This document shows, one piece after another, positions 27,075 through 31,357 of a stretch of 64,000 nucleotides of DNA. The position numbers were made by a program, and so were the translations under genes. The stretch lies in assembly GCF_057098645.1 (NCBI RefSeq), contig NZ_CM169472.1. The stretch is one strand, 5' to 3'. How positions within the stretch are numbered: position 1 is the first letter of the stretch; each line of letters opens with the position of its first letter. Under the pieces are notes generated by a model that worked only from the letters and a program-made list of their open reading frames with translations, did no database searches and was not told where the DNA came from.

Positions 27075-27089
27075 TCGCTTTGTCAGCGA
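27075..27089 (-). promoter_or_regulatory. nutR boxB-like hairpin
   Basis: Transcript sense TCGCT-GACAA-AGCGA between cro and cII; same pentaloop as the nutL element. Confidence 0.5.
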
Positions 27090-27127
27090 CGTAGGACGAA
27101 TGTCCATTGTGAAAATAGCGGTGTTAC

Positions 27128-27361
27128 TTATGCAGCCGATGCTCTACGCGATACGAACACTAGGTTTTCCTTTTTCACAGGTTTATAACCCGTGAAATTA
27201 CGAGTAGCTTCTTCGATTGCATTCGCTTTATCAGGGGAAGCTCTTCGAAATCCATATGCAATCTGGTCAAGATAGCCAACTGAAGTTTTCGCTAATGCGG
27301 CGAGTCGCTTCCATTCCTCACTAGAAGCCTCTTTTCGCCAGCGTAGTAGTTCATTACTCAT
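27128..27361 (-). CDS. cro: Cro-like repressor
   Basis: 77-aa ORF divergent from cI across the operator region. Confidence 0.65.
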   Translation of the reverse strand: MSNELLRWRKEASSEEWKRLAALAKTSVGYLDQIAYGFRRASPDKANAIEEATRNFTGYKPVKKENLVFVSRRASAA

Positions 27362-27474
27362 TAGTGCCTCCGTTTATCACACAGAACGACTTTACCATTT
27401 TGATAAATCAACTGCAATGTAAATTTATCATATTGCGTATTTATCCATTTGCTAAATAGAGGGAAAATTGTGAG
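27362..27474. promoter_or_regulatory. OR / PR / PRM region
   Basis: Divergent cI and cro starts; repeated TTTATC / GATAAA half-sites that recur at the OL region near 31200-31290. Confidence 0.55.
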
Positions 27475-28179
27475 ATGGAAAACAAAGATATTCGCAAATC
27501 GAATCTGGCGTTTTTGCTAGATGAGCATAAAAAAATCGCGGGTAACACTAATGCAAGCTTTGCCGATAAGCTTGGGGTTAGCCCTTCTCAACTCACGCAA
27601 GTCTCCGGTGAAAAAAGCACTCGAAACATAGGGGATAAACTAGCAAGAAAATTTGAAGCCGCGCTTGGGTTACCTAATGGGTGGCTTGATTTGGTACATG
27701 ATGTAACACCAATTGCATCATGCTCAGATTCTTTAACTTTTGTCGGTCAGGTAAGAAAAGGGTTAGTGCGCGTGGTTGGTGAGGCAATTCTTGGTGTTGA
27801 TGGTGCCATCGAGATGACCGAAGAGCGCGATGGGTGGCTCAAAATTTATAGCGATGATCCAGATGCCTTTGGTCTTCGTGTGAAAGGAGACAGCATGTGG
27901 CCCAGAATAAAATCAGGAGAATATGTACTCATTGAGCCTAACACCAAAGTATTCCCGGGTGATGAGGTGTTTGTCAGAACCGTTGAAGGACACAACATGA
28001 TTAAGGTTCTTGGCTATGACAGAGATGGAGAATACCAATTTACAAGCATTAACCAGGATCACAGGCCTATAACGTTGCCTTATCATCAAGTAGCAAAGGT
28101 GGAGTATGTAGCTGGTATTCTGAAGCAATCTCGCCATCTGGATGACATCGAGGCAAGGGAGTGGCTGAAAAGTTCGTGA
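27475..28179 (+). CDS. cI: CI repressor (HTH plus S24 LexA-like peptidase domain)
   Basis: N-terminal HTH, C-terminal GDSMWPRIKSGEYVLIEP...K motif characteristic of S24 autopeptidase. Confidence 0.8.
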   Translation: MENKDIRKSNLAFLLDEHKKIAGNTNASFADKLGVSPSQLTQVSGEKSTRNIGDKLARKFEAALGLPNGWLDLVHDVTPIASCSDSLTFVGQVRKGLVRVVGEAILGVDGAIEMTEERDGWLKIYSDDPDAFGLRVKGDSMWPRIKSGEYVLIEPNTKVFPGDEVFVRTVEGHNMIKVLGYDRDGEYQFTSINQDHRPITLPYHQVAKVEYVAGILKQSRHLDDIEAREWLKSS

Positions 28180-28239
28180 CTTCATCGTCACATAGCTGGT
28201 AACCAGTGGCCAGAAGAAACGTTTGGGTGAGGAGGATAG

Positions 28240-28581
28240 ATGGCGTTCACTGACCTTGAATATCAAGCGGTCAAAAAAGAAGTTCACCAATTCATTGAAA
28301 GCATAAGGCCGCCTGAACATATCCGCAATGAACTGGATATTGTTTATAGCATCAATGACCAAACGATAGATATCGGCGAACAGCGCCCCGTGTGGCAGGG
28401 CAACCCAGGTGAAACAAACATCCTGCCATCAGCAAGAATCAAGTACATACGTTCTCTGGATAGATGGAAAATCTATTGGATGCGGAAGGATATGAAATGG
28501 CATCAGTACAGTACTGAACTTTCGCTGACTGATGCGCTTGAGCTTGTGCGTGCTGACCCGGATTGCTGCTTCTTCGGATGA
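28240..28581 (+). CDS. Hypothetical protein, first gene of cI-linked cassette
   Basis: 113-aa ORF 60 bp downstream of cI, same strand. Confidence 0.5.
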   Translation: MAFTDLEYQAVKKEVHQFIESIRPPEHIRNELDIVYSINDQTIDIGEQRPVWQGNPGETNILPSARIKYIRSLDRWKIYWMRKDMKWHQYSTELSLTDALELVRADPDCCFFG

Positions 28582-28597
28582 GTGAAGAGACGTTTGG

Positions 28598-29086
28598 ATG
28601 ATGGATGATCGCAGAGATGCTCGTAGAGCATACAGCGATGCAGGAGAATTTATGGCACTTAATTTAGAAAGAATATCTTTTATAACCCCATTTGATAGCA
28701 GCGAAGAACCCAACCAACCGACGCTTAATTTTACATGCAATGAATTTCCTGCGCGGCTATCAATTGATTTCAGGGTTGGTATGATCGGGTTGAAACCAAA
28801 TTCAAGATATAATTTGGGTATTATGGTAATCCCCGCGCACCTAATTATAAAAAAAGGTGAGGAAATTCAATTCCCTGACGGCTCTTCGGAATCAGTTTCA
28901 CTTTTCATCGATACGAAAGATAGCCATTTTGAAACAGGGGTTGGCGGACAGGTAATAGTAACATTGAAAGAAATTAGGGTCCCAGCTAAAGGGCTGTATA
29001 GTGTTATAGGGATATTGCAAGATAATGAAGACCCTAAAAATGAACTTCATAAAAATGAATCATTTTTCACCGTAGAGCTATTATGA
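28598..29086 (+). CDS. Hypothetical protein, second gene of cI-linked cassette
   Basis: 162-aa ORF, AT-rich, no recognised motif. Confidence 0.5.
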   Translation: MMDDRRDARRAYSDAGEFMALNLERISFITPFDSSEEPNQPTLNFTCNEFPARLSIDFRVGMIGLKPNSRYNLGIMVIPAHLIIKKGEEIQFPDGSSESVSLFIDTKDSHFETGVGGQVIVTLKEIRVPAKGLYSVIGILQDNEDPKNELHKNESFFTVELL

Positions 29087-29703: not shown

Positions 29704-29711
29704 CGCATTAA

Positions 29712-29737
29712 CCCGGCCTCAGCGCCGGGTTTTCTTT
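29712..29737 (+). terminator. Rho-independent terminator ending the cI operon
   Basis: cccggc-ctcagc-gccggg followed by ttttcttt. Confidence 0.7.
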
Positions 29738-29809
29738 GCCTCACGATCCCCACACCTAAAAACACATTGAACCGCCCCGGTTTTCCTGGAGAGTGTTTTA
29801 TCTGTGAAC

Positions 29810-30697
29810 TCAGGCTGCCAGATCATCGTTTCTGATGGAAGCATAATAAGCTTTTTCTGCTTCTGCCGGAGGGATATGACCCAGCCTTCCCAGCAATCGT
29901 CGATTGTTATACCAGTCCACCCACGTGAGTGTGGCCAGTTCCACTTCTGCACGGTTTTTCCAGCTCTTACGGTGTATTACCTCCGCTTTGTAAAGACCAT
30001 TGATGCTCTCCGCCATCGCGTTGTCATACGAGTCACCTGTACTCCCTGTTGATGCCAGCAGTTTTGCTTCTTTTAGTCGCTCCGTATAGGCCAGTGATAC
30101 ATACTGAGAACCTTTATCACTGTGATGGACTGTGCCGGACGGCCGACGGGCCCACAACGCCTGCTCCAGTGCATCCAGCACGAATGTCGTTTCCATAGAC
30201 GATGAGACTCGCCACCCCACGATACATCCGGCAAACACATCAATGATGAACGCCACATAGACGAAGCCCTGCCATGTGCTGACGTAAGTAAAATCAGCCA
30301 CCCACAGCTGGTCAGGACGTTCTGCCACGAACTGACGGTTTACGCGGTCGCCTGCGGAAACGGCTTTCCGGCTGACGGTAGTACGGACCTTTTTACCCCG
30401 GAGAACACCGGCAAGTCCCATAACCGCCATGAGACGTGCCACAGTGCATCTGGCCACTCTGATACCTTCCCGTAACAACTGACGCCAGACTTTACGCACA
30501 CCGTATACCTTGTGATTTTCATCGTATACGCGCTGTATCTCTCTCTTCAGCCAGTCATCGCGCTGAGCACGGGCACTGCGTTTATCAGGATGATGTCGCT
30601 GTTGCTGACAGTGGTAATACGTTGACGGGGCAATATGCAGTTCACTGCATACCGGTCCGACCCCGTACTGCTCACGCAGCTTATCCAGCAGCGGCAT
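29810..30697 (-). CDS. IS629 transposase OrfB
   Basis: 295 aa with DDE integrase-core motifs. Confidence 0.9.
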   Translation of the reverse strand: MPLLDKLREQYGVGPVCSELHIAPSTYYHCQQQRHHPDKRSARAQRDDWLKREIQRVYDENHKVYGVRKVWRQLLREGIRVARCTVARLMAVMGLAGVLRGKKVRTTVSRKAVSAGDRVNRQFVAERPDQLWVADFTYVSTWQGFVYVAFIIDVFAGCIVGWRVSSSMETTFVLDALEQALWARRPSGTVHHSDKGSQYVSLAYTERLKEAKLLASTGSTGDSYDNAMAESINGLYKAEVIHRKSWKNRAEVELATLTWVDWYNNRRLLGRLGHIPPAEAEKAYYASIRNDDLAA

Positions 30698-31023
30698 TAT
30701 TTTTTCCAGAGGCGGTCGAACTCCGCCTTCGCAAAATAAGCGGAAGCCTGGCGAAGGATATCGTTACTGCGGCGCAGTTCACGATTTTCACGTTCCAGCT
30801 CTTTCAGACGCTGACGTTCAGCGGTGGTGAGTCCACCATCACCACTCCCGGTATCCCGCTCATGCTGACGAACCCACACACGCAGAGTCTCTGGTGTACA
30901 GCCAATCTTTGGGGCAATGGAACAAATTGCCGCCCATTGTGAGTCATATTCGCCCTGACTTTCCAGAACCATACGAACTGCCCGTTGACGGACCTCGGGG
31001 GAAAAACGTGTATTTTTAGTCAT
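30697..31023 (-). CDS. IS629 transposase OrfA
   Basis: 108 aa with HTH and leucine zipper; overlaps OrfB for the -1 frameshift. Confidence 0.9.
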
Positions 31024-31189
31024 CCTGTTTACCTCTTTCTCAGGGAGTTTAGTCTCCAGGATTCCCGGGGCGGTTCACATAACCAATTGTATTTGTTGAA
31101 AAATAAATAGATACAACTTGCTAAACAACGCAATCCAGATCTCCCTCAAATCTCTTTATTTATCCTGTCGAATTCCTACAACAAAATAA

Positions 31190-31300
31190 AACACCATAAG
31201 AATCAATACGATATTTGAAAACCAAGAGAATTTATCATTTTGCTATTGCCATTAATTTATCATTCCGATAAAGTTCACCCATCAGCAGGACGCACTACTC
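31190..31300. promoter_or_regulatory. OL / PL region
   Basis: Three copies of the ATTTATCA half-site motif also seen at OR; upstream of N. Confidence 0.45.
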
Positions 31301-31342
31301 ACCAGGGCGGTGAATATACAACGATTCGAATATGAATCTACG

Positions 31343-31357
31343 GCGCTGACAAAGCGC
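31343..31357 (+). promoter_or_regulatory. nutL boxB-like hairpin
   Basis: GCGCT-GACAA-AGCGC, 5-bp stem with GACAA pentaloop, 165 bp upstream of N. Confidence 0.5.

Follow-up and report, generated by a model that had tools for sequence, protein, structure and literature searches.

The window analysed here, a 64,000-nt (64-kb) stretch of contig NZ_CM169472.1 (assembly GCF_057098645.1), is by its sequence a lambdoid prophage whose immunity and early region are those of the Stx1 (Shiga toxin 1) phage H-19B. The elements under study were two small RNA hairpins with a GACAA pentaloop, which are almost certainly the boxB elements of nutR and nutL in a lambdoid prophage of the H-19B type that uses ordinary N/nut processive antitermination. 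The minus strand carries cro, cII, O, P and ren, as assigned from the open reading frame (ORF) map, Pfam and protein comparison with H-19B, and the plus strand carries cI, three accessory ORFs and N. This gene arrangement is that of a lambdoid early region, reversed with respect to the lambda map as usually drawn. A pR-like promoter on the minus strand and a pL-like promoter on the plus strand (Table 1) place each hairpin in transcript sense. The minus-strand hairpin lies between cro and cII, and the plus-strand hairpin lies about 62 nt 3' of the pL start and 166 nt 5' of the N start (31523). The place equivalent to the pR-like promoter region in phage ST2-8624 carries the annotated operators oR1-3. 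The pL transcript probably starts at about 31281 with the sequence ATCAGCAGGACGCAC, which follows the -10 element, is identical at the lambda pL transcript start and is nearly the same in P22.

A first-pass annotation made from the letters alone had proposed that CGCT-GACAA-AGCG occurs in transcript sense at both nut positions. The 13-mer CGCTGACAAAGCG was present in exactly two copies, one on each strand (minus, 27076-27088; plus, 31344-31356), and no further copy was found in the window even when one mismatch was allowed. In 100 dinucleotide-preserving shuffles, the mean was 0.14 matches, and two or more matches were never obtained (0/100). The 15-nt forms (TCGCT-GACAA-AGCGA at nutR and GCGCT-GACAA-AGCGC at nutL) extend the stem to five base pairs. 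GACAA occurs 111 times in the window when both strands are counted, and only these two occurrences are flanked by a stem of at least 4 bp. The RNA fold prediction suggested in the same annotation was performed, and both isolated hairpins folded into a 5-bp stem with a GACAA pentaloop, at -6.6 kcal/mol for nutR (z-score -2.4) and -8.5 kcal/mol for nutL (z-score -3.3). The same stem and pentaloop were retained by both hairpins inside contexts of 141-251 nt. Between the nutL and nutR boxB, the bottom pair is changed from G-C to U-A, which is compensatory. The proposed sense and position both held, the latter by the ORF map and the upstream pR-like and pL-like promoters.

By megablast, the region falls among Shiga toxin (Stx)-converting phages. 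Compared with the H-19B record AF034975, positions 31076-31382 (OL/pL through nutL, 307 bp) were 100% identical, and positions 24671-28230 (ren through cI, nutR included) were 96.8% identical. Seven published oligonucleotides for H-19B nutR (RS662-665 and RS421-423) all matched exactly and tile 27049-27132. They are described as antisense to H-19B nutR, with RS662 covering boxA, RS663 the spacer, RS664 boxB and RS665 the post-boxB segment, and RS421-423 serving as primers (PMC3526286 supplement). The boxB oligonucleotide RS664 matched at 27070-27093. Because of these exact matches, the minus-strand hairpin is the nutR boxB that has been used experimentally in H-19B. Antitermination and footprinting were done with purified H-19B N on H-19B nutR (PMC3526286, PMC4499122). 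In RNase H and T1 footprints, H-19B N together with NusA/NusG protects the spacer as well as boxB, whose loop G is among the protected positions, and the H-19B nutR contains two hairpins (PMC3526286). H-19B nutR with H-19B N supports antitermination in vitro and in vivo (PMC4499122). Sequence identity, fold, positions, covariation and the N family come from the present analysis, and binding and antitermination from the literature on an identical nutR.

The likeness to H-19B covers the nutR boxA, spacer hairpin, boxB and 3' flank, all identical over the tiled interval, as well as the nutL region, the gene order, and the cI, Cro (Table 1) and N proteins. However, the window differs from H-19B at four residues of N, including R12H in the arginine-rich motif (ARM), and the interior of the N leader, from nutL to the N Shine-Dalgarno, is another sequence. 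The window also has an insertion sequence (IS) of the IS3 family upstream of pL that H-19B lacks. The rest of the prophage diverges, and the Q, R and Rz proteins match weakly or partially. Both hairpins are thus the nutL and nutR boxB sites already studied in H-19B, in a boxB form also found in P22, and they are not new.

The N protein was assigned to Pfam PF25694 N_peptide with 57.4 bits against a cutoff of 27.9, and was 96.9% identical to H-19B N. Its N-terminus is arginine-rich (MTRRTQFKGNSHSRRRERLKAK), and its C-terminal motif LPxVAxYAAGxRKSKQxTAR is common to P22 gp24. The ARM reported at first pass was confirmed by this sequence, by the Pfam family and by alignment to P22 gp24, and the proposed N/nut antitermination system was supported by the N family, the sense hairpins at nut positions and the H-19B identity. 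A PDB sequence search with N returned a chance match only (E = 1.7), and the P22 N peptide chain of 1A4T was not returned.

The GACAA loop was compared with the boxB loops of Salmonella phage P22 and of lambda. The nutL annotated in the P22 reference genome (30816-30849, minus strand) reads CGCTCTTTAACTTCGATGATGCGCTGACAAAGCGC; its boxB GCGCUGACAAAGCGC is the same as the window nutL boxB at 15/15 nt, and the P22 nutR boxB CCGCCGACAACGCGG also has a GACAA loop. The P22 N peptide-boxB complex is known as a solution structure (PDB 1A4T, Cai et al. 1998; PMC12550061), in which the GACAA pentaloop folds like a GNRA loop, the C being looped out and touched by His and Arg of the peptide (PMC12550061). 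The N proteins of P22 and the window are in the same Pfam family, and gp24 shares the ARM core F-GN---RR-ER and the C-terminal motif with the window N, the ARM correspondence being based on MAFFT alignments, since BLASTP aligned the C-terminus only. In contrast, the window N is 38% identical overall to gp24 and 27 residues longer, the stem of the P22 nutR boxB is not that of the window nutR, and both P22 sites carry the canonical boxA CGCTCTTTA but lack a spacer hairpin.

Lambda has boxB elements GCCCT-GAAGA-AGGGC at nutL and GCCCT-GAAAA-AGGGC at nutR. It resembles the window in the form of boxB (a 5-bp stem with a purine-rich pentaloop), in its location downstream of pL and of cro, in a nearly identical pL transcript start and in an N that is arginine-rich at the N-terminus. 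However, the lambda stem (GCCCU/AGGGC) and both loops differ, as the first-pass annotation had noted for the loop, lambda N is barely alignable (E = 0.008, ARM only), and a canonical boxA is present in lambda, where the spacer hairpin is absent. Since GACAA is the boxB loop of P22, this departure from lambda is a classical textbook variant and not a new one.

Relatives whose N falls in the same Pfam family showed a relationship between the ARM of N and the boxB loop. N proteins with a long ARM (RRRERLKAKAL; H-19B, the window and SPN9CC) occur with GACAA at nutR. The long-ARM loci also have GACAA at nutL, except for three SPN9CC-type loci. The nutL boxB of this type is aberrant (GCUC-CGUCAAC-GAGC, a 4-bp stem closing a 7-nt loop in which GUCAA occurs; SPN9CC locus 4383-4397 and three IMG/VR loci) and may be degenerate or differently recognised; the SPN9CC nutR keeps GACAA, with a U-G closing pair. 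N proteins with a short ARM (RRRARRANL or RRRERRAAL; VT2-Sakai, POCJ13, E212 and g341c), two residues shorter, are accompanied at both nut sites by a GNRA tetraloop, either GAAA or GCAA. VT2-Sakai, g341c and POCJ13 share with the window the nutR spacer hairpin, the CUACG linker, the stem UCGCU/AGCGA and the N C-terminus, whereas their tetraloop lacks the loop C and their ARM is shorter. With spacer hairpin, linker and stem identical in both classes, nutR differs by the single loop C. The nutR spacer hairpin is shared by 120 IMG/VR loci; the N gene was readable in 74 of them, and these comprised 38 with a long ARM and a pentaloop, 36 with a short ARM and a tetraloop, and none of mixed type. The 74 loci are related by descent, and their counts are therefore not independent. 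Given the high mosaicism of these phages, however, the lack of any mixed case suggests that ARM type and loop type are co-adapted.

Several points weigh against the assignment of a working N/nut system to this copy. The experiments were made on the H-19B system, with an N that is 97% identical to the one in the window. Position 12 of N (codon 31556-31558), inside the motif GNSHSRRRER, is His in the window and Arg in H-19B and in 78 of the 79 IMG/VR loci with this N, His12 being shared by one contig only (L010). No recognisable boxA core CGCUCUUU was seen by nut-site alignment in the nutL segment at the boxA position (CGGTGAATATACAAC). Finally, the IS element sits 203 bp upstream of the pL start, in the interval that separates OL/pL from the terminator following the cI-distal genes.

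At nutR, the boxA core CGCTATTT agrees with CGCTCTTT at 7/8 positions, with one mismatch, and VT2-Sakai-type relatives retain an rrn-like boxA GCTCTTTAAACAA at both nut sites. The H-19B nut system was described by Neely and Friedman (1998, 2000). The later paper reportedly mentions "dyad symmetries in the spacer" of H-19B nut, which the two spacer hairpins match, and H-19B N reportedly acts independently of boxA and NusB. The lack of a recognisable boxA at nutL would fit such a reduced dependence and would then be no serious objection.

These points could also mean that the system is impaired here despite intact sequences of N and of both nut sites: R12H could reduce the binding of N to boxB, or the IS close to OL/pL could interfere with leftward expression, and the hairpins would then be relics of a cryptic prophage. 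The rarity of His12 and the presence of the IS are consistent with this explanation, as are the failure to detect stx1 in the window and the origin of the closest whole phage from an O55:H7 strain. However, N is encoded by a full-length ORF preceded by a good Shine-Dalgarno sequence, and a His within this motif is tolerated in P22 N (RRHERRR). Neither the operators nor the promoter nor nutL is interrupted by the IS, whose 3-bp target duplication is clean, and an identical N occurs in one IMG/VR contig without the IS. We consider an impaired system very improbable. This prophage copy would probably be active in N/nut antitermination.

To examine pairing across relatives, nut sites were compared among H-19B, SPN9CC, g341c, VT2-Sakai, POCJ13, E212, P22, lambda and IMG/VR contigs. 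The search by N alignment gave only loci at least 98% identical, which were unfit for covariation, and a DNA-pattern scan for the nutR spacer hairpin was used instead. Tetraloop and pentaloop boxB elements were aligned with a placeholder N at the extra loop position, as plain MAFFT misaligned them. In 13 distinct boxB stem sequences, 98.5% of cells were standard pairs and three of the five pairs showed compensatory changes, with the bottom pair occurring as U-A, G-C, C-G and A-U. No shuffle or slid register approached the observed stem pairing. This covariation indicates selection on RNA pairing and not on DNA sequence. Among the 80 IMG/VR loci with N at least 98% identical, the nutR boxB was unchanged in 66 and the nutL boxB in 69 (within a 260-nt search window), the other loci having a longer N leader. 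An Rfam scan of 26000-32500 returned no family for the nut sites; its only significant match was the ALIL pseudoknot of the IS element.

That the hairpins are not N sites at all, but chance matches, Rho-utilisation (rut) or terminator elements, or protein-binding DNA palindromes, has a negligible probability: nutR does overlap the rut site of the Rho-dependent terminator tR1 in lambda and H-19B (PMC3526286), which gives the region a second role, but the number of CGCTGACAAAGCG copies is far above chance, no T-run follows either hairpin on its 3' side, the stem covariation points to RNA pairing, the loop type co-varies with the N type, and footprinting shows N on an identical nutR (PMC3526286), so that published H-19B results already speak against this explanation.

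The coordinates of the features of the H-19B-type early region are summarised in Table 1. In both nut sites, the spacer hairpin is followed by a CUACG linker and then by boxB, and the nutR spacer hairpin is also kept in the nutR of SPN9CC, g341c, VT2-Sakai, POCJ13 and E212.

Table 1. Features of the early region and flanking sequence in the 64-kb window.
Feature	Position	Strand	Basis
nutR boxB, UCGCU-GACAA-AGCGA	27075-27089	-	Fold; exact match of oligonucleotide RS664
nutR spacer hairpin, GGAC-AUUC-GUCC	27094-27105	-	Fold; exact match of oligonucleotide RS663 at 27090-27111
nutR boxA, CGCTATTTTCACAA	27107-27120	-	Exact match of oligonucleotide RS662 at 27109-27132; alignment with relatives
nutL segment at boxA position, degenerate, CGGUGAAUAUACAAC	31308-31322	+	Nut-site alignment
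nutL spacer hairpin, GAUUC-GAAUAU-GAAUC	31323-31338	+	Folds
nutL boxB, GCGCU-GACAA-AGCGC	31343-31357	+	Fold; identity of the region with H-19B; 15/15 nt with P22 nutL boxB
pR-like promoter (TTAGCA, 17-nt spacer, TATGAT)	27427-27455	-	Consensus scan; within OR operator region between cI and cro
pL-like promoter (TTGCCA, 17-nt spacer, TAAAGT)	31246-31274	+	Consensus scan
cro	27128-27361	-	ORF; 98.7% identity to H-19B Cro
cII, first gene downstream of nutR	26693-26989	-	Pfam Phage_CII, E = 6.6e-35
cI repressor	27475-28179	+	100% identity to H-19B cI; Pfam Peptidase_S24
N antiterminator gene, 127 aa	31523-31906	+	ORF; Pfam; alignment with H-19B N and P22 gp24
N-leader long-range helix, arms 31367-31386 and 31491-31510	31367-31510	+	Fold, z = -3.85
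Terminator-like hairpin and T-run just downstream of ren, tR2-like position	24688-24711	-	Scan
First terminator-like hairpin and T-run downstream of N, tL1-like position	32278-32297	+	Scan
Further terminator-like hairpins and T-runs, in sense	33366-33385; 36187-36205	+	Scan
IS3-family element (IS629/IS1203-like), 1310 bp	29768-31077	orfA/orfB on -	Inverted repeats TGAACCGCCCCGG...CCGGGGCGGTTCA; 3-bp target duplication CAT

Both operons have terminator-like sites in sense orientation 3' of their nut sites. The Rho-dependent tR1, of a type that sequence alone does not predict, is documented at the identical H-19B nutR (PMC3526286). The hairpin after ren is a candidate target of N-modified polymerase, and the first hairpin after N is a putative terminator. 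Separately, a strong intrinsic terminator (12-bp stem, T-run) was observed at 26717-26744 on the plus strand, antisense in the 3' end of cII, at the position of the lambda oop RNA terminator.

A single nucleotide separates the end of the N-leader helix (about 19 bp) from the N Shine-Dalgarno AGGAGG (31512-31517). The consensus fold over six phages, SPN9CC, g341c, POCJ13 and E212 among them, had 18 pairs, five with compensatory changes, and the enclosed insert is hypervariable, its length ranging between phages from 76 to more than 200 nt. This helix is reminiscent of the RNase III-sensitive N-leader structure of lambda.

The IS element carries an ALIL frameshift pseudoknot (Rfam, 120.9 bits) and leaves the operators, pL and nutL intact. 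The IS-pL junction in one piece had no match among the complete E. coli genomes searched. The apparent prophage end, with int and xis, is near 40450, and 40450-64000 has little phage similarity. The closest whole phage was JLK-2012 (E. coli O55:H7), which covered 82% of positions 1-24000 at 95.7% identity. No homologues of stx1A or stx1B were found in the window by tblastn, and stx2 was not specifically searched. A tRNA-Met gene is located at 17186-17261 on the minus strand, downstream of a weak Q-like match at 17866-18006.

Under the N/nut assignment, loss of the repressor would let RNA polymerase start at pR on the minus strand and at pL on the plus strand and transcribe the nut sites, each consisting of a boxA (weak at nutR and unrecognisable at nutL), a small spacer hairpin and boxB. 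The boxB RNA would fold into its 5-bp stem capped by the GACAA pentaloop, and the arginine-rich N-terminus of N would bind this loop on the nascent transcript, as in the GNRA-like P22 complex with the C flipped out. The middle of N would recruit NusA to the spacer, and the conserved C-terminus would contact the polymerase. The modified complex would then pass Rho-dependent and intrinsic terminators, namely tR1 overlapping nutR and the sites after ren and after N, and read-through would allow cII-O-P-Q to be expressed from one operon and the recombination, cIII and kil genes from the other.

The window carries a complete canonical early antitermination module of the H-19B type. The sites, the protein partner and the mode of RNA-peptide recognition are all published, so no new biology is claimed for them. 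The covariation of ARM length with boxB loop is a mildly useful by-product that could guide specificity-swap experiments. Tentatively, and with the odds in our judgement clearly against it, the 1-nt difference in the nutR loop (GACAA or GAAA) and the two-residue indel in the ARM (RRRERLKAKAL or RRRE/ARRA-L) may define two N-boxB specificity classes and, if not yet described, a natural minimal specificity switch in co-circulating Stx and related phages. If true, such a switch would limit cross-activation between prophages that share a host. In this same tentative reading, the rare R12H form of N could be a variant in specificity or affinity. In Stx phages, a module of this kind gates Q and therefore the late genes and the toxin.

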